From the sequence record MZ358387: a DNA stretch of 64,000 bases; one strand, given 5' to 3'. The position numbers and the translations under genes are program-made. Below are positions 2,596 through 47,800 of this stretch, piece by piece (the first letter of the stretch is position 1; each line of letters opens with the position of its first letter). The notes beneath the pieces were generated by a model that saw only the letters and a program-made list of their open reading frames with translations, was not told the origin of the DNA and made no database searches. This DNA comes from Shigella virus Moo19.

Positions 2596-2608
2596 CATGC
2601 TCCGCATG
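2596..2608 (+). promoter_or_regulatory. Tri-loop hairpin catgc-TCC-gcatg (bottom strand GC-GGA-GC); candidate N4-type vRNAP early promoter hairpin
   Basis: Perfect 5-bp stem, 3-nt loop; same core as hairpins at 3584 and 7442; upstream of ORF 2652. Confidence 0.35.
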
Positions 2609-2981: not shown

Positions 2982-3010
2982 GGAAGACTCCTTGGAGTCT
3001 TCCTGTTTTA
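2982..3010 (+). terminator. Rho-independent terminator (9-bp stem ggaagactc/gagtcttcc, loop cttg, then tgtttta)
   Basis: Read directly. Confidence 0.6.
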
Positions 3011-3013
3011 AAG

Positions 3014-3032
3014 ATTAGATAGTCAATCTAAT
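3014..3032. promoter_or_regulatory. Palindrome attagat-agtca-atctaat containing 14-mer ttagatagtcaatc (second copy at 3529-3542)
   Basis: 7-bp inverted repeat read directly; lies just after a terminator and upstream of ORF 3063. Confidence 0.4.
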
Positions 3033-3209: not shown

Positions 3210-3276
3210 AAACCGCATCTAGAAACTGGGCTGTTCCACAGCTTACGGATACATTTCAACCAATTAGGAGGCATCC

Positions 3277-3492
3277 ATGAACGTAGAAAATATCCGTATA
3301 ATTGAGAATTGCTTTGGTGATAAACCAGTAGACCTCAGCAACGCAAGAAGGTCTACAGATGAAGAATACAGAGAGTTTTTATCCTTACTCGATGAATATC
3401 ATATGCAAGGGCATGTTGAATTACATGCCCATCTGCATAACTCAGGCTACTTCATGGATAAACTGGAAGCTGAGACAGGCTGTCCATTCTAA
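3277..3492 (+). CDS. Hypothetical protein (71 aa)
   Basis: ORF track; strong RBS aggagg upstream. Confidence 0.45.
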   Translation: MNVENIRIIENCFGDKPVDLSNARRSTDEEYREFLSLLDEYHMQGHVELHAHLHNSGYFMDKLEAETGCPF

Positions 3493-3528: not shown

Positions 3529-3547
3529 TTAGATAGTCAATCAAAAG
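3529..3547. promoter_or_regulatory. Second copy of 14-mer ttagatagtcaatc in an imperfect palindrome
   Basis: Identical 14-mer to 3015-3028. Confidence 0.4.
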
Positions 3548-3583: not shown

Positions 3584-3600
3584 AAGACGCTCCGCGTCTT
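3584..3600 (+). promoter_or_regulatory. Tri-loop hairpin aagacgc-TCC-gcgtctt (7-bp stem); candidate vRNAP early promoter hairpin
   Basis: Perfect inverted repeat; GC-TCC-GC core shared with 2596 and 7442. Confidence 0.35.
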
Positions 3601-4657: not shown

Positions 4658-4845
4658 TTGAATTTAAGGTAGGCGATATAATTGAACCAATAGAGGGATT
4701 CCCACAGTGGAAAGGTATAACAATACTTGAGTGGAATCCTATTACTCGTGATGCCTCAGTTAAGCTTAAATCCGGTACTGTTATACATGGTTTTAATCTA
4801 GACCCTGACTATGGAGTTGAATTCAAATGCGTAAGTCCATCTTAA
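4654..4845 (+). CDS. Hypothetical protein (63 aa)
   Basis: ORF track; ggag RBS. Confidence 0.4.
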   Translation: MIEFKVGDIIEPIEGFPQWKGITILEWNPITRDASVKLKSGTVIHGFNLDPDYGVEFKCVSPS

Positions 4846-4989
4846 TGGGAACCAGAGAAGATGTTATTAAGCGTCGTGCTAAACAAGTTACTGCTCAATC
4901 AGTGCCTGTTACTGGTTATAGTAGAACATATAACAGTAAGCCTAAGCAGTATATCGTAACTTTCAATCATCCTTGTATTCAATAATAGT

Positions 4990-5017
4990 GGCTCCCATTA
5001 GGGAGCTTCTATTTTTT
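4990..5017 (+). terminator. Terminator (gctccc-atta-gggagc + T tract)
   Basis: Read directly. Confidence 0.5.
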
Positions 5018-5031
5018 ATTTAGAATAGTTA

Positions 5032-5062
5032 GTCCCGAAGGGACAATCTTACGAAGTAAGAT
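5032..5062 (+). promoter_or_regulatory. Two adjacent GAA tri-loop hairpins (gtccc-GAA-gggac; atcttac-GAA-gtaagat)
   Basis: Perfect inverted repeats read directly; function unknown. Confidence 0.3.
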
Positions 5063-5095
5063 TAGACATAGATAGATATAGGAGAAACTATTAAA

Positions 5096-5404
5096 TTGTT
5101 AAATGAAATCATCTGTATTCCACAGAATAAGGCTCGCATTGCAGATAGGAATATTCGTATTCATCTGCCAATGCCATTAGCTAACCCATTCAGTAAGTCT
5201 GAAAGACTGAACCAGGATGATGTAGATGTGGCTTATGAGGCATATCTGCGTAATCGTCTTATCTCAGGCGATAAGCTAATCACTGCTGAAATGGAAAAGA
5301 TTGCAGGCTTTGTCATGGACAAAACAGGCAAACCTGTAGGACTGATAGGCAATGAGCCAGAGGTAAATGTAATACGTAAACTTATTATGGAGGCTATTGG
5401 ATAA
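5096..5404 (+). CDS. Hypothetical protein; N-terminal half resembles DUF4326-type motif (LANPF...AYEAYL) seen in ORF 6220
   Basis: ORF track (non-ATG start at 5096 implied); start uncertain. Confidence 0.35.
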   Translation: MLNEIICIPQNKARIADRNIRIHLPMPLANPFSKSERLNQDDVDVAYEAYLRNRLISGDKLITAEMEKIAGFVMDKTGKPVGLIGNEPEVNVIRKLIMEAIG

Positions 5405-5625
5405 TGATTCTTAATCCTAATTACCGTACATGTGAAATATGTGGTAAACACAGGGCTAAGGGAAATCATAATAAGTGTTCACGTATACTACAGAAGCAAC
5501 GTAATAATGCTGAACAAGCATTAATATTAGAGAACCAGAGGAAACACGAAGAGTACATCTCTGTTCGTAAGGCTTCTCTAAACAAATTTAGAAGGAAACC
5601 ATTTATACGTATAAGTAAAGGTTAA
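5404..5625 (+). CDS. Hypothetical basic protein with CxxC...H...C (possible zinc-binding)
   Basis: ORF track; composition. Confidence 0.35.
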   Translation: MILNPNYRTCEICGKHRAKGNHNKCSRILQKQRNNAEQALILENQRKHEEYISVRKASLNKFRRKPFIRISKG

Positions 5626-5627
5626 CT

Positions 5628-5912
5628 ATGAAAGTAATCACCTATCCTACTCATAAAATAGCACTCTACATGGGACAAAAAGTAGAAGTTCCATTATGGG
5701 TTAAATATTTAGCAGTACTTCCAATGATGTATGGTCATTCAAGTTCTGCACTAATTGGCTTCAGCCATAAACCCAAATTCACTAAGACTGGTATTTGGAA
5801 AATATCATCTCAGTATAAGAACACTAAGCAGGAACAAATAGGCATAGTCCGTAACTTTGCTCCTGCTAAAAATGAAATTGAAGCTACTCTAAGTGAGGTT
5901 CTATTACCATGA
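5628..5912 (+). CDS. Hypothetical protein (94 aa)
   Basis: ORF track. Confidence 0.4.
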   Translation: MKVITYPTHKIALYMGQKVEVPLWVKYLAVLPMMYGHSSSALIGFSHKPKFTKTGIWKISSQYKNTKQEQIGIVRNFAPAKNEIEATLSEVLLP

Positions 5913-6223
5913 CTACCATCGTAGTATTGCATGACACCACATTCAAAGATGTGGATAAGATGATGAACAATATAGACTATGTTGCTCAGCATTCTAAAGC
6001 ATTCAATGGGGAGTTCACTATTTATTGTGAACCAGAATCTCCATTGGCTCCTGTATTAAAAGAAGCAGGGCTTCCGTTCAGTACTACTGACTTCCCAGAA
6101 GAACCTGACTTCGTTATCTCATTCATCTACGATTTACACGACGGTTCTAAAGCCAGTGAACTGGCAATGAACCAGTGGAAGTCTCGCCGTCCTGTATGGC
6201 CTTTCCAGGTACTGAAACCATGA
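5909..6223 (+). CDS. Hypothetical protein (104 aa)
   Basis: ORF track; ATGA overlaps with neighbours. Confidence 0.4.
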   Translation: MTTIVVLHDTTFKDVDKMMNNIDYVAQHSKAFNGEFTIYCEPESPLAPVLKEAGLPFSTTDFPEEPDFVISFIYDLHDGSKASELAMNQWKSRRPVWPFQVLKP

Positions 6224-6600
6224 AGACTATCTCATTAGGTGACGATACCAATGCTTTGCTGGGTGTAGCTGCACGTCCAATCATCATTGTTAATAAACAT
6301 CATGGTAAACCGGGTGAGTATATTGGACGTGGTTCACCATTGGGTAATCCATACCCAATTGGTGATAAATACAACCGTCAACAAGCTATTGCTATGTATC
6401 GTGTCTGGCTGCAAGAACAGATTGATAAAGGTAATCCAGTTGTACTGGATGAACTTAATCGTCTGGGTAATAAAGCCATTGACGAAAAAGGACTGGCCTT
6501 ACAGTGCTTCTGTTATCCGAAACCATGTCATGGTGAGGTTATTAAAGAGAAGCTCGTAGAGGCTATGTACAACTACTTTGTGGAGAATCCAAATGAGTAA
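6220..6600 (+). CDS. DUF4326-like protein (GRGSPLGNPY ... CFCYPKPCHGEV)
   Basis: Motifs GNP and C-x-C-x-P-x-P-CHG recalled as DUF4326 signature; ATG 6220 overlaps upstream stop. Confidence 0.5.
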   Translation: MKTISLGDDTNALLGVAARPIIIVNKHHGKPGEYIGRGSPLGNPYPIGDKYNRQQAIAMYRVWLQEQIDKGNPVVLDELNRLGNKAIDEKGLALQCFCYPKPCHGEVIKEKLVEAMYNYFVENPNE

Positions 6601-6787
6601 GCAATGTAAATGTGGTAAAGGCTATGTATCCCAATGGGATGATAAGTGTGGTAAATGCCGAACCAAGAAGGAACAGCGTGACCATCAAATAGCTTTAAGG
6701 GACTTAGACCTGTATATCGCAGGTCGTCCAGAATTTAATATGACTCCACAAGAAGCCTATAAAGGCTTAAGGAAACTGTACAAATGA
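6593..6787 (+). CDS. Small zinc-ribbon-like protein (CKCGKG...CGKC)
   Basis: ORF track frame; ATG 6593 with ggag RBS; two Cys pairs. Confidence 0.4.
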   Translation: MSKQCKCGKGYVSQWDDKCGKCRTKKEQRDHQIALRDLDLYIAGRPEFNMTPQEAYKGLRKLYK

Positions 6788-7167
6788 AAGAAATATTCGT
6801 ATTCGGTTCTAATCTGGCTGGTGTACACGGTGCTGGTGCAGCTAAGACTGCATATAAGAAGCACGGTGCTCGTTGGGGTATGGGCGTAGGCCATTATGGT
6901 TGCAGCTATGCAATTCCAACTAAAGACCAGAACATCAAAACAATGGAGTTGGTTGATATCGCTGTATTTGTATCTGCCTTCATCCTGTATGCAGCAGCAC
7001 ACCCAGAGTGGGACTTCAAAGTAACACGAGTAGGTTGTGGGCTGGCTGGCCTGTCTGATAAAGACATGGCATTCATGTTCTTACCTGCAACAGGTAATGT
7101 CATGTTTGATGAAGCATGGAAACCTTATTTAGGTGATACCTATAACTACTGGGGTACATTCGAATGA
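6784..7167 (+). CDS. Gly-rich Rossmann-like motif protein (FVFGSNLAGVHGAGAAKTA...GCGLAGL); possible nucleotide-binding (SLOG/macro-like?)
   Basis: Motif only; family assignment uncertain. Confidence 0.35.
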   Translation: MKEIFVFGSNLAGVHGAGAAKTAYKKHGARWGMGVGHYGCSYAIPTKDQNIKTMELVDIAVFVSAFILYAAAHPEWDFKVTRVGCGLAGLSDKDMAFMFLPATGNVMFDEAWKPYLGDTYNYWGTFE

Positions 7168-7436
7168 CCTATGAAGAATTATGGGCTGCTCAAGTAAGAA
7201 GTAAGGCGAGAGCCTTTGCTCATGTCTACAGCACATTGCAGCATCTTATTAAAAGCAGAACCAAAGCTGGACATATACATGGTTACTACAAAGAAGATTG
7301 TATTCCCGATGGTGACTACCTATGGGATAAAAGAATCCGTCACGAGAGTGACATTATAAAAGTGAATATTGCTATTCATTCATACCCACCAAGGGGTAAT
7401 CGCTACCTATCTATTCACTTTTATACAAAGCGTTAG
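7164..7436 (+). CDS. Hypothetical protein (90 aa)
   Basis: ORF track. Confidence 0.4.
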   Translation: MTYEELWAAQVRSKARAFAHVYSTLQHLIKSRTKAGHIHGYYKEDCIPDGDYLWDKRIRHESDIIKVNIAIHSYPPRGNRYLSIHFYTKR

Positions 7437-7441
7437 GTAAT

Positions 7442-7460
7442 AGCTGCTCCGCAGCTTTTG
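7442..7460 (+). promoter_or_regulatory. Tri-loop hairpin agctgc-TCC-gcagct followed by TTTT; candidate vRNAP promoter hairpin or short terminator, 30 nt upstream of RNAP II genes
   Basis: Perfect 6-bp stem, TCC loop; same GC-TCC-GC core as 2596 and 3584. Confidence 0.35.
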
Positions 7461-17604: not shown

Positions 17605-18051
17605 ATGCGTATCCCATTCTTAAACAAAAGGAAAAGGGTTCCAACCCTGTTTCAAAAGGGAATTGAAGACGAGTTCGCTCTTAACCGTAAAGCACAGCAA
17701 TACATCGTAACTTTGTTCACTGGTGCAAAGGTAGATGCAGAAATGCAGCTTACTTTCATATTTGAACAGCTATTCATCGTGTACAATCTCGCCTTGTTTA
17801 CTGGCTCTCACGAAGTGAGTGATTGTGCACGAGAAGCCCTCCGTAAGCTCCGTGGTGAGTTTGAAAGACTACATGCCAGCTTTCCCTTCACTATGGATGC
17901 AGTCGCCTCTGTGAACTGCTCAAAGGCTCTGGCAATGGGTATACCCATTTTGCAAGAACTACCTCGTAGTGAATTTAAGTTGGCTTATGTGCAAGCCCGT
18001 AAGCTAACGGAGTCCAAACAAACCCTAATCTATTTAGAGAACCTACGATGA
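17605..18051 (+). CDS. Hypothetical protein (148 aa)
   Basis: ORF track. Confidence 0.4.
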   Translation: MRIPFLNKRKRVPTLFQKGIEDEFALNRKAQQYIVTLFTGAKVDAEMQLTFIFEQLFIVYNLALFTGSHEVSDCAREALRKLRGEFERLHASFPFTMDAVASVNCSKALAMGIPILQELPRSEFKLAYVQARKLTESKQTLIYLENLR

Positions 18052-37484: not shown

Positions 37485-37566
37485 GGGGGAGTAGTCAAGC
37501 GGTCGAAGACGGCAGACTGTAAATCTGTTATCCCACACGGTAGTTCGAATCTACCCTCCCCCACCA
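37485..37566 (+). tRNA. tRNA-Tyr (anticodon GTA), 10-nt variable region, CCA encoded
   Basis: Hand-folded cloverleaf: acceptor GGGGGAG/CTCCCCC, T-loop TTCGAAT, anticodon loop CTGTAAA. Confidence 0.65.
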
Positions 37567-37567
37567 C

Positions 37568-37642
37568 GGTAAGTTAGCTAATTGGTGAAGCGGCTGACTG
37601 TTAATCAGTGATAGAGTGGTTCGAGTCCACTACTTACCGCCA
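37568..37642 (+). tRNA. tRNA-Asn (anticodon GTT), CCA encoded
   Basis: Hand-folded: acceptor GGTAAGT/ACTTACC, T-loop TTCGAGT, anticodon loop CTGTTAA. Confidence 0.7.
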
Positions 37643-37647
37643 CATTA

Positions 37648-37724
37648 CGGAGTTTAGCTCAGTCTGGTAGAGCATCTGCTTTGGGAGCAGAGGGTCGTAG
37701 GTTCGAGTCCTGCAATTCCGACCA
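37648..37724 (+). tRNA. tRNA-Pro (anticodon TGG), CCA encoded
   Basis: Hand-folded: acceptor CGGAGTT/AATTCCG, D-arm GCTCAGTCTGGTAGAGC, anticodon TGG. Confidence 0.7.
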
Positions 37725-37730
37725 AACAAT

Positions 37731-37806
37731 TAGGGGTTAGTTCAGTTGGTAGAACATCGGACTTTGATTCCGAATGTCACAGGTTCGAATCCTGTACCCC
37801 TTGCCA
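37731..37806 (+). tRNA. tRNA-Gln (anticodon TTG), CCA encoded; position 1-72 is T-T (unpaired)
   Basis: Hand-folded: D-arm GTTCAGTTGGTAGAAC, anticodon loop CTTTGAT, T-loop TTCGAAT. Confidence 0.6.
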
Positions 37807-44800: not shown

Positions 44801-47800
44801 CAGTATTCAGAATCTCAACAGAGTTATCTGGCAGGTTCCCAGTTTTATCGAAATCAACCATCATATCGACAGCAGGTTTCAAATTGCCTTCCAGTGCAGC
44901 AGTCAGTTTTGCTGACATTGCCTCACGAGACATGTTGTGAACCTTGATGCCCAATGCCTGAGCCAAGCCAACCTGGAAATCAGAGAAGGTCTGTGAGTTT
45001 TCATTGGACAGGTCAATAGTAGAAAACGTAGGCAGAATAGCTTCACGAACCAGCTTACTGGACTGAGGATTATTCTTACCAAGCATCTGCATACGACCAA
45101 CACGAGTCATGTTGTAGGCATAGTGGATTGGAGTTTCCAGTCCGTTTTCCTGTGCACGAGTTTGCTCTACCACACTAAACAAGGAATCATAAGCCATAGC
45201 TACTGACAGGTTTTTACCTTCCAGTGACTTAGCAGTATTCACATTCAGCAGTTCAGGATTAAGCGTACCAGCACCCATCAATTCCAGAATCTTGTCACGA
45301 CCCATAGCCTCATAGAAGTTAACCATAGGTTCATGAATACGGAACTCAGTAGCCTGTTCTGCTTTCAGAGCAGCTTTCTGTTCCGGGGTATTCTTAACAG
45401 CAGGGTTGCGTAACTGAGTCTGAGCCACAGAAGGTACGTCGTCACCGAAGTACATTTTCTCTTCTGGTTCTACCAACACAGCTTCTTCAATTGCTGTAGG
45501 GAATTTATTGATAGGGTCATTGTCTGCCAGCTTATCAATGGTATACAGACCAACAGTCTTAGTGGAGTCTGGGTCAATTTCAGAGACATCTAGCATAGTC
45601 TCAGTAACTTCACCTGCTTCAATAAGAGCAGACAGAATCTCAGTTGCCATAGCAACAGGGATACCTTTGGTATAACCCAGTGGTGCATTAGGGTTACGGT
45701 CAAAGCCCCAGTAAGATTCAATTTTCTGAGCCAGTGAGTTAGTAGCTTCAACGAGAGTCTGAGCATTCTCAAACATCTCAACTACACCTTCCGGTAACAG
45801 AGCCTGTTCAATACCAGTAATAGCAGCCACGTCTTTAGCATCTTTAACGGCAGCATTCTGAGTAGCAGTCAGTCGCCATTGCAGACCAGCAAGTACGGCA
45901 GTTTCAAGCAGAGAATCGTTGAACTTAAAGCTATTGCCATCTGGTTCAACAATATTCAGCAGCTTACCACCAACCCAACGGTTAGCTTCAGTGCCCTCAG
46001 CAAAACGCTTACCTACGTTCTTGTTAGACAGGAACTTAGCCAGTCGGTCATTCAGAATGGATTTAATGTTTTCACCCGTGTTCATCAGGTCTTTATAACG
46101 ACCAGATACATCAGGGGTAAGAGCAGTATTCTCACTCTGAGTAAACGTTTCGAAACGTGCATTAGAAGACAGAGCCTGACCAATATCTTTCATTGGAGAC
46201 TCGGAACCAGTGGTACGAGACTTAGGTTCAGCAGGTAATGAGTAAGCAATCTTGAGGTAATTTTTTACCCCAGGCTGGCTGACATCAGTACTCCCAACCA
46301 AATCAGGATAAGCAGCGTCAATACCACTACGAGTGGATTCCACTTCATTAGTAGTTTCCTCAGTATTTTCAGTAACATCCTCGATGCTACCCTCATTGAT
46401 GAGGGTAGCATCCTTTGCCTTTTCGGATTGAGGCTTAGTTACTTTCTCTGGTTCTGCCTTAGACTCAGTAAAAGGAGCACTATTTTCTACCGTCGATTCC
46501 CTATTAGGAGTTACAGTAGGTGCAGCCTCCTGAGTTTGTGCAGGAGTTTCGTCAACTTGATTCACTGGTTCATTAGTCTGTTGGGATTGAGCAGCGTCAA
46601 GATTGCCCTGACGGAACTCTTTAACCACCTGGGCAGCAGGCTTGTCCAGACGTGAATCCAATGAGGTAACATTGATATGAGAAACGTTAAGCTCCGGGTA
46701 AGCCGTAGCAAGTGCATTAGCAATATCAGCTACGGTTTTGGCTTCCAGTCCTACTTGCTGGGCAAACTTAACCGACTTGGTATCGTAAGGATTAACACCG
46801 AGTCCAGTACGACTTCTTACCCATTCACGGGAAGGGGTGAGGGCTTGGTAATGGACAGACTTATTCTTATCCGCATTCCCAGAAATCAGATGTTCATTCA
46901 ACGCTCCGACCTTGTTCTGCATGTGCTGGGCGAACTGCATAAAGTCGCTCAAATAAGCGGAAGCCAAATCGAAGTTACCAGAGTTATACGCAGACCGAAT
47001 GCGTTTAGCATGTTGCAACGCAGAGTACTGGCCTTCATTAGAACGAGACTCGTCGGTTTTAATCTGTTTACCCACAATGTCTTGAGGCCGTAAACCAAGC
47101 TGTTCAGCTTTGGTATCAAACTCACGTGCTCCCTGTAATAGAGCAGCAGCGGATTGCAGGGCAGCACGTTGACGATTGTTCAACGTAATCTTGCCTTCAC
47201 TCGCATGTTTCAGAACCATGTTCACTGAATCAGCGTCCAGTACTTCCGGGCTTACGTCAGCAGCCATTGCTACGTTGTTAGCCTGATTCTGGTCTGCTAC
47301 ATCTTCGGTCACATTCAGATTACCTTGTTCAGCTTGTTCCTGAATCATGGAATGAATGGCACGGAATGCACGAAGTACCTTTGGAGTATTCTGGATGTTA
47401 GCCATCAGACCCGAATACTGGTCGAGCACAGCATTAGCAGGACTATCTTTAGGCAGATTGTTCAGTGCAGCAGGGTCACGGTTAACGAAGTCTTCCATCT
47501 GCATAACCATGTCGTACATATTGGCAGCAGCTTCCATCATCTGGTTCGGGTCTTCAGTAGTGTTAACTACATCAGCCAGTTTCTGGATTACCTGAACTCG
47601 GTCAGTGGAACCGTTAACAGCTTCCTGAACCACAGGAGAAGCATCAGCAAATTCTTCCGGGTTAATACGGGTAGCATTAACCAAATCACTTGCATACTGG
47701 TGTGCAGCAGCCTTCTCTTCAGGAGAGATGTCCATTGCTTCAACAGCATCAGCCATAGTTGCCTGAGCAGTATCTGCTTGTGCAGCAGCTTCCTGAGCAG

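Follow-up and report, generated by a model that had tools for sequence, protein, structure and literature searches.

A probable recent 33-bp insertion of two promoter-class DNA hairpins in the early region of an N4-like phage

Introduction

To our knowledge, promoters in the form of DNA hairpins are peculiar to N4-like phages, and both this class of hairpin and its use by such phages are well known. The coding strand of N4 reads GTTGC-TTC-GCAAC ttatGG at promoter P1, AAGAAGC-TCC-GCTTCTT ttGG at P2 and AAGCTGC-TCC-GCAGCTT ttGG at P3; given these TTC and TCC loops on the coding strand, the N4 template strand carries C-GAA-G at P1 (GTTGC-GAA-GCAAC) and C-GGA-G at P2 and P3, and a cryo-EM oligonucleotide of P2 confirms the orientation of the hairpin on the template strand. 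Supercoil-driven extrusion of the hairpins, like their stability, requires a C:G closing pair and a loop with G at its 5' end and A at its 3' end (PMC4496689). The polymerase, vRNAP, reads -11A/G, -10G, -8G (via R904) and +1C, while its beta-hairpin places the junction of duplex and single strand at -5/-4 (PMC4496689).

Other described systems bear on tandem or unusually stable hairpins of this kind. The tandem early promoters of the N4-like phage LUZ7 lie 33 nt apart, both point rightward, have start sites mapped by ONT-cappable-seq and drive the drc gene (PMC9163698). Early promoters of Ithacavirus all carry C-TTC-G on the coding strand followed by GG, with a variable base at -8, and four of these genomes (UTK0001, B2, UTK0002 and SP154) have a tandem pair of hairpins upstream of an NrdA.1-like gene that reads ACTTAC-TTC-GTAAGT at CTCAC-TTC-GTGAG taatGGG on the coding strand. 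The short hairpin of that pair, with its downstream taatGGG, is invariant in five Humphriesvirinae and is, judging from its sequence, a genuine promoter, and the long one is lineage-specific. Lastly, the mini-hairpins d(GCGAAGC) and d(CCGAAGG) resist heat and nucleases and occur at phage and plasmid priming sites (PMC13037366).

Here we analyze two adjacent hairpins in a 64,000-nucleotide stretch of Shigella virus Moo19 DNA (sequence record MZ358387), referred to in its entirety as the window. The pair shares with N4 P1, P2 and P3 a C:G-closed 5'-G-R-A-3' loop on a short perfect stem as well as a position only a few kb in from the left on an N4-type genome, and its loop is exactly the template-strand loop of P1, C-GAA-G, which, together with a sheared G:A pair, also characterizes the mini-hairpins described by Hirao. 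It differs from the N4 promoters in being inverted, in having C or A rather than G at -8 and A rather than C at +1, in lacking a GG start, in an 8-bp second stem that exceeds the 5-7 bp range, and in not being conserved. As in LUZ7, an N4-like phage has two hairpins near each other in its early region; unlike those of LUZ7, they abut and face leftward. The novelty lies in the reverse orientation of the pair, in its back-to-back layout and, most of all, in the evidence from filled and empty sites for its insertion as a unit.

Results and Discussion

The locus and the hairpin pair

The window represents a G7C-like N4-type coliphage. Genomes of Gamaleyavirus, the genus of the Schitoviridae to which G7C is assigned, match it best, and the closest deposited genome is that of phage Jgk1, with ~78-84% identity along most of the window. 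Because several deposited genomes of the group, and also N4, start at the equivalent of window position ~2505-2515, the pair lies ~2.5 kb from the genome's left-hand end, in the early region. All ORFs flanking it are on the + strand. The upstream ORF (4827-4985, + strand, 52 aa) is a homologue of N4/G7C gp6, annotated at the homologous place in G7C as 'gp6, similar to N4 gp6', and is the last gene before an intrinsic terminator (4990-5017, + strand) in which the stem-loop GGCTCCC-ATTA-GGGAGC(T) (4990-5007) is followed by the T-run TCTATTTTTT (5008-5017). This terminator is kept in relatives, is labelled 'terminator' in the annotation of SP5M, and scores as terminator-like on the - strand too (5006-4991, then CACTATTATT). 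The downstream ORF (5096-5404, + strand, 102 aa, TTG start) is a homologue of N4/G7C gp9, and its Shine-Dalgarno sequence AGGAG (5080-5084, + strand), kept in all aligned relatives, lies ~17 nt beyond the hairpins.

Direct reading of + strand positions 5032-5062 gives gtcccGAAgggac a atcttacGAAgtaagat. Hairpin 1 (5032-5044, + strand) is GTCCC-GAA-GGGAC, with a 5-bp stem and the core CCGAAGG, a d(C-GAA-G) mini-hairpin; hairpin 2 (5045-5063, + strand) is AATCTTAC-GAA-GTAAGATT, with a C-GAA-G loop. The letters are those described in the first-pass annotation, which had noted two adjacent GAA tri-loop hairpins at 5032-5062, although the second stem, taken there as 7 bp, gains one further pair with a base on each side and is in fact 8 bp long, so that the two hairpins abut with a spacer of 0. 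Their placement immediately after a terminator was likewise accurate in that the pair starts 14 nt past the terminator tail.

Secondary-structure prediction on both strands, proposed as a check, returned both hairpins in the MFE and centroid folds of the + strand DNA, the - strand DNA and the RNA. An isolated 36-mer with both hairpins folds at -8.4 kcal/mol (z = -5.1), and none of 200 shuffles folds as well; the nearest-neighbour DNA folding used here yields equal energies for both strands, the GNA bonus not being in the model. To assess chance occurrence, the 64-kb window was shuffled 300 times with its dinucleotide composition preserved. Hairpins closed by C:G, with a GAA, GGA, TTC or TCC loop and 5 bp or more of stem, numbered 6 against 0.56 expected, C-GAA-G hairpins 3 against 0.15 expected, and an adjacent pair of the C:G-closed class was observed once in the window and in 0 of the 300 shuffles. 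Abutting triloop hairpins with arbitrary 5-bp stems are not rare, five such pairs being present within the window; the significance of the pair stems from the common C-GAA-G loops and the 8-bp stem, not from adjacency alone.

Three features define mini-hairpins of this type: a GNA loop, closure by C:G, and G:C or C:G as the second pair. All three are present in CCGAAGG, the hairpin 1 core, which equals both the CC/GG mini-hairpin variant and the RSF1010 ssiA sequence (PMC13037366), whereas the core of hairpin 2, ACGAAGT, has the loop and the closing pair only, its second pair being A:T and hence outside the GC/CC stems deemed essential (PMC13037366). The C:G closing pair, the loop 5'G and the loop 3'A are all present on the + strand in both hairpins. 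These features support the assignment of both to the GNA-triloop DNA mini-hairpins, the structural class to which the N4-type vRNAP promoter hairpins belong.

Filled and empty sites

A MAFFT alignment (A2) of the spacer between the terminator and the gp9-like gene contains a clean 33-column gap in 9/9 aligned relatives. The corresponding window segment, TCCCGAAGGGACAATCTTACGAAGTAAGATTAG (5033-5065 as placed by MAFFT), comprises the two hairpins and a duplicated TTAG, the window reading aatagTTAG[TCCCGAAGGGACAATCTTACGAAGTAAGATTAG]acat across it. In the same alignment the left (5029-5032) and right (5062-5065) copies of the TTAG direct repeat correspond to a single TTAG in the relatives. BLAST matches of the relatives to the spacer end at window position 5032 or resume at 5062, and direct reading of the relatives at the homologous place finds unbroken gaatagTTAGAcat/gaatagTTAGAtat. 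The empty site was found in Jgk1, G7C and SP5M, in six IMG/VR genomes and in the Logan contigs L036, L037 and L039, the Logan and ENA contigs having been reached through the gp9 protein. It was found also in L038, the decisive case: in this 72-kb contig, ~45 nt to the left of the site and ~80 nt to its right agree with the window but for one mismatch, a match that spans the terminator, the spacer and the start of the gp9 gene.

The hairpin pair is absent from every relative examined; the lack of conservation in related phages that had been named in advance as refuting evidence is therefore observed, even in L038 with its near-identical flanks. Because empty sites occur with diverged as well as identical flanks, and the flanks of the filled site are those of one empty allele, the event is best placed as an insertion in the lineage of the window, and as a recent one. 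Deletion in the relatives was rejected on parsimony, and repeated deletion misfits the flanks of the empty alleles. We also considered that the pair marks a mosaic junction and ruled this out, since homology with L038 and Jgk1 runs on both sides of the insert. The inserted DNA is almost exactly two folded hairpins and nothing else. Our best reading of these comparisons is that the pair constitutes a recent, lineage-specific 33-bp insertion in the conserved terminator-to-gp9 spacer; that it is an assembly artefact is formally possible.

We searched for further copies and for a donor in collections that did not contain the window's own genome; exact look-ups of the two flanking proteins likewise returned no record. 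No second copy with up to 3 mismatches occurs within the window, and BLAST with a 44-mer found no other copy in 50,697 phage records and none in 5,426 E. coli genomes. IMG/VR, JGI metagenomes and GTDB genomes were scanned with the pattern CGAAGN7CTTACGAAGTAAG, which gave no other copy of the pair in IMG/VR and, in the JGI metagenomes and GTDB genomes, chance matches only, all without the first hairpin. When the window was compared with the whole Jgk1 genome, no other palindromic-cassette indel emerged. A filled and an empty site with target duplication (TTAG, L038) are what a mobile element would leave, but are equally expected for microhomology-mediated insertion, and the multiple copies typical of MITE, REP or IS200-IS605-derived elements are lacking, the window having a single one. 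The 33-bp indel resembles short templated insertions and microhomology-flanked or palindrome-associated indels in its 4-bp direct repeat TTAG and its palindromic content, and differs from a repeat family or MITE in its single copy and in the lack of a donor sequence in any collection searched.

The sole look-alike that we found is the Ithacavirus tandem pair. Compared with the reverse complement of the window pair it is identical at 26/32 positions (81%), with equal loop-to-loop spacing; both pairs consist of abutting C-GAA-G/C-TTC-G triloops, one with a 5-bp stem and one longer, and have the core CTTAC-GAA-GTAAG in common. In Ithacavirus, however, it is the template strand that carries the stable hairpins, whereas the window pair has the opposite orientation with respect to the genes and lacks the GG start. 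The resemblance may reflect shared origin or shared constraints, and with a BLAST E-value of 9 we do not claim homology. A further, improbable reading is that the insert is the footprint of a process that makes or moves hairpin-promoter-class cassettes among N4-like phages, here having deposited what would serve as a leftward vRNAP binding site. Such a cassette could have arisen by capture of nuclease-resistant folded single-stranded DNA from a co-infecting Ithacavirus-like phage, or as a minimal hairpin element that duplicated TTAG on insertion, and it might yield a short antisense RNA ending at the bidirectional terminator or act as a polymerase decoy. Recurrent insertions, or a donor with TTAG-TCCCGAAGGGACAATCTTACGAAGTAAGA-TTAG, would support a mobile or captured cassette.

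Comparison with vRNAP promoters

The window's own rightward promoter hairpins provide the standard against which the pair can be judged. These are the vRNAP-type hairpin CATGC-TCC-GCATG gtatGG (2596-2608, + strand), a homologue of N4 P1; the candidate GCTGT-TCC-ACAGC ttacGG (3230-3242, + strand), which has a T:A closing pair; AAGACGC-TCC-GCGTCTT aaGG (3584-3600, + strand), upstream of a gp2-like gene; and AGCTGC-TCC-GCAGCT tttGG (7442-7456, + strand), a homologue of N4 P3 upstream of an RNAPII subunit gene. A TCC loop on the coding strand, a coding C at -8 (template -8G) and a GG start are common to all four. The promoter hairpins of Jgk1, seven in number with five distinct sequences, every one show a C-TCC-G loop, a coding -8 C and a GG or CGG start near +1, and in the genomes examined the template-strand loops of this genus are GGA only. 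The GAA loops of the pair are indeed unlike those of the hairpins at 2596, 3230, 3584 and 7442, as had been remarked from the sequence.

Measured against the 5-7 bp stem and 3-nt loop of vRNAP promoters, hairpin 1 (5 bp) fits and hairpin 2 (8 bp) falls slightly outside. The bases -11A, -10G and -9C are present on the + strand in both hairpins. The stable C-GAA-G hairpins, however, sit on the coding, non-template strand of every flanking gene and could for that reason only drive leftward transcription; the template strand for rightward transcription offers C-TTC-G, whose -11 base is a pyrimidine and whose -10 base is T. If the + strand is read as template, -8G is replaced by C (5035) in hairpin 1 and by A (5051) in hairpin 2, and +1C by A at both 5027 and 5043. 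The leftward sequence past hairpin 1 is taacTATTC, as against xxxxGG in real promoters, and contains no GG start. Nor does the pair point toward downstream early genes or recur among the relatives examined, as a promoter would be expected to. The promoter interpretation fails three defining tests. What stands of the earlier suggestion of a variant promoter hairpin is the structural class, the GNA class to which N4 P1 belongs; a working promoter is not supported, given the wrong strand and the missing -8G, +1C, GGA loop and GG start.

Conventional signals were also sought at the site. A second intrinsic terminator was considered and rejected, the terminator scan calling 4990-5017 and not 5032-5063; neither hairpin is followed by a T-run, hairpin 1 leading into AATCTTAC and hairpin 2 into AGACATAG. 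A promoter scan called no sigma-70 promoter at the site of the pair.

Transcription in the leftward direction deserves separate consideration. vRNAP might bind the C-GAA-G hairpins of the + strand as a weak promoter, giving a short antisense or abortive RNA that runs to the reverse face of the terminator, or might simply be held there as on a decoy; either would modulate the sharing of the few injected polymerase molecules among the early promoters. The + strand hairpins have all determinants of extrusion together with -11A, -10G and -9C, the GAA loop has a precedent in N4 P1, and a left-facing terminator-like structure stands at 5006-4991. Ithacavirus promoters use C-GAA-G with a variable -8, with an 81% identical tandem pair in one lineage, and LUZ7 has tandem early hairpin promoters. 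We nevertheless regard a leftward promoter or decoy as unlikely: -8G, +1C, a GG start and a GGAYRTAT-like initial sequence are missing, only GGA loops occur in the genus among the genomes examined, all relatives examined do without the pair, and we found no precedent for an antisense early promoter in the N4 literature consulted.

We favor, with about an even chance of being right, the reading that the pair is a tolerated pseudo-promoter or a neutral cruciform that contributes little or nothing to gene expression. Negative supercoiling by gyrase would cause both inverted repeats to extrude, the arms on the + strand forming SSB-resistant mini-hairpins with a sheared G:A pair and the C-TTC-G arms on the - strand being melted by SSB. 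Given -11A, -10G and -9C, vRNAP might dock weakly, but productive initiation is unlikely because -8G, +1C and the GG start are missing. A leftward RNA, if any, would start near 5027 or 5043 and, within ~40-50 nt, meet the terminator from its reverse side (5006-4991), leaving a short product. Since the stretch from the terminator to the ribosome-binding site is a safe location, the element is probably tolerated as near-neutral. Three observations sit less easily with a tolerated pseudo-promoter. Its perfect stems and identical loops could be due to selection and not to recency; the insertion consists of exactly two hairpins with the same loop polarity, a hint that polarity matters to something; and Ithacavirus promoters use C-GAA-G with a variable -8, so that specificity differs between genera.

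Possible roles in RNA, melting or replication

The pair could alternatively act in RNA, as stem-loops in the 5' UTR of read-through transcripts of the gp9-like gene that either stabilize the message against 5'-end-dependent decay or mark a place for RNase processing within the AU-rich sequence downstream. Both hairpins form in the MFE and centroid folds of the RNA, and their distance of ~17 nt from the Shine-Dalgarno sequence would suit such an element. No rightward promoter hairpin occurs between 3584 and 7442, so that the genes at 5096-7436 need read-through or an unrecognized promoter. An RNA element is nonetheless quite unlikely. The C-GAA-G triloop is a stability motif specific to DNA, and the RNA terminator hairpins of this phage have 4-nt loops; the stems are too short for RNase III; and relatives express the same gene without the pair. 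No family of Rfam 15 reached its gathering score, the covariance models giving sub-threshold chance matches only (up to 19 bits, E of at least 1).

A further candidate role concerns the conserved AT-rich TTAGACATAGATAG just downstream of the hairpins. If the + strand hairpins resist SSB, they could hold the duplex open like a wedge, exposing the - strand so that the ssDNA-dependent RNAPII/gp2 machinery would start middle transcription of the gp9 operon. N4 RNAPII binds only ssDNA and needs its promoter melted, its AT-rich minimal promoter spanning -7 to +2, and middle promoters of LUZ7 have hairpins ~15 bp upstream of the start site (PMC9163698). The stable hairpins of the pair lie on the non-template strand, as such a wedge would demand, and the motif TTAGAYA is found after three early terminators; the spacer itself is conserved across the genus. 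We consider this very unlikely, however, since a C-GNA-G hairpin stands before no other intergenic AT-rich site of the genome, the relatives lack the pair, and a middle promoter at the TTAGACATAGATAG site is itself putative.

The identity of the hairpin 1 core with the CCGAAGG core of RSF1010 ssiA raises the possibility of a single-strand initiation signal, that is, a primase or replication start comparable to the phage G4 origin or ssiA. Mini-hairpins, CCGAAGG among them, occur at ssDNA priming sites and are SSB-resistant (PMC13037366), and the transcription machinery of N4 is linked to replication. Origins are expected to be conserved, however, and this element is unique to one genome; its flanks have no origin-like features, and we found no literature on an N4 origin. 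We hold a role in initiation to be highly improbable. The same grade applies to the proposal that the two perfect palindromes, of 13 bp and 19 bp, situated in a regulatory spacer, are operators bound as duplex by a dimeric regulator of the phage or host: their half-sites are unrelated save for CGAAG, the genome holds no second copy, relatives lack the pair, and the identical odd-length centers with the same polarity point to a strand-specific hairpin rather than a duplex operator.

Implications

The present case pairs a filled site with a near-identically flanked empty site and involves a promoter-class pair in a non-productive orientation. Repeated insertions of this sort, if they occur, would reveal how phages gain, lose and re-orient hairpin promoters, and would amount to a natural in vivo test of the determinants that are needed (strand, -8G and +1C). 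Most likely, the event was a one-off neutral insertion, in which case its main value is as a warning: even where a hairpin pair in a regulatory spacer is perfect and stands out statistically, it need not regulate.

Other C-GAA-G hairpins

We lastly considered whether the pair might belong to a clade-wide family of + strand C-GAA-G hairpins. This was rejected, and three other cases are treated as chance. The Jgk1 hairpin TAACCTC-GAA-GAGGTTA lies within an ORF found only in Jgk1, and a hairpin at window position 17807 is likewise within an ORF. The third, ATACCC-GAA-GGGTAT in contig L036, consists of codons of the conserved HNH motif IPEGY, and a synonymous change breaks the hairpin in G7C.

Triloop hairpins in the window

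Perfect triloop hairpins with a stem of at least 5 bp are in general excess across the window, with 124 observed in its whole length versus a mean of 69 and a maximum of 95 in 300 dinucleotide shuffles. Further C-GAA-G hairpins on the + strand were found at 17807-17819 of the window, at 4763-4779 of Jgk1, the closest deposited genome (2772-2788 of its part L001), and at 312-326 of L036, a Logan contig of a relative; all lie within ORFs and were taken as chance occurrences. The Jgk1 hairpin has a 7-bp stem and sits in a gene found only in that phage. The hairpin of L036 arises from the codons that specify IPEGY, a conserved HNH motif; in G7C a synonymous change disrupts the hairpin. Compared with Jgk1, the window also has two short specific insertions at 46323-46405, in a spacer that aligns poorly, each of which forms a hairpin (CCACT-ACG-AGTGG and CCCTCA-TTGA-TGAGGG), neither belonging to the C-GRA-G class.

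Early promoters

The rightward vRNAP-type promoter hairpins of the window (2596-2608, 3230-3242, 3584-3600 and 7442-7456) share a TCC loop and a C at -8, both on the coding strand, and a GG start. The hairpin at 3230, located in the 67-bp spacer ahead of the ORF at 3277-3492, is unusual in being closed by a T:A pair (GCTGT-TCC-ACAGC ttacGG). In the Ithacavirus Salmonella phage UTK0001, early-promoter hairpins are located at 28, 657, 2272, 2325 and 4977, those at 2272 and 2325 being 53 bp apart. Every early promoter of Ithacavirus takes the form of a C-TTC-G hairpin with GG after it, and the base at -8 varies among them. This pattern implies that the specificity of the Ithacavirus vRNAP differs from that of N4 and G7C.

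Terminators and downstream motifs

Both strands score as terminator-like at 4990-5007, and likewise at 2982-3003, so that both terminators may be bidirectional. Three early terminators are followed by a TTAGAYA motif (3015-3030, 3529-3544 and 5062-5075), a putative signal that could serve as a middle promoter or in processing; the TTAGA(C/T)AT... sequence of the spacer ahead of the gp9-like ORF is kept throughout the genus, and TAGATAGTCAATC is repeated exactly in the window at 3017 and 3531. A candidate conserved regulatory element, TTTTCGACGAAG, is common to the spacer 3' of the gp2 terminator in the window phage (4164-4175), N4 (1145-1156 of L007), G7C (785-796 of L002) and Jgk1 (2404-2415 of its part L034). 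It can fold into CTTTTC-GAC-GAAGAG, a hairpin in which one pair is T:G.

Genome end and tRNA genes

N4 and several deposited Gamaleyavirus records start at a point corresponding to ~2505-2515 of the window, and the window therefore contains the genome's physical left end; its own first 2.5 kb is right-end sequence or reflects a permuted record. The P1 hairpin is present three times in Jgk1 (87, 587 and 73745). Four tRNA genes, Tyr-GTA, Asn-GTT, Pro-TGG and Gln-TTG, are clustered at 37485-37806, where Jgk1 has 96 bp extra. Directly 3' of the cluster lies an uncalled sequence resembling one more tRNA.
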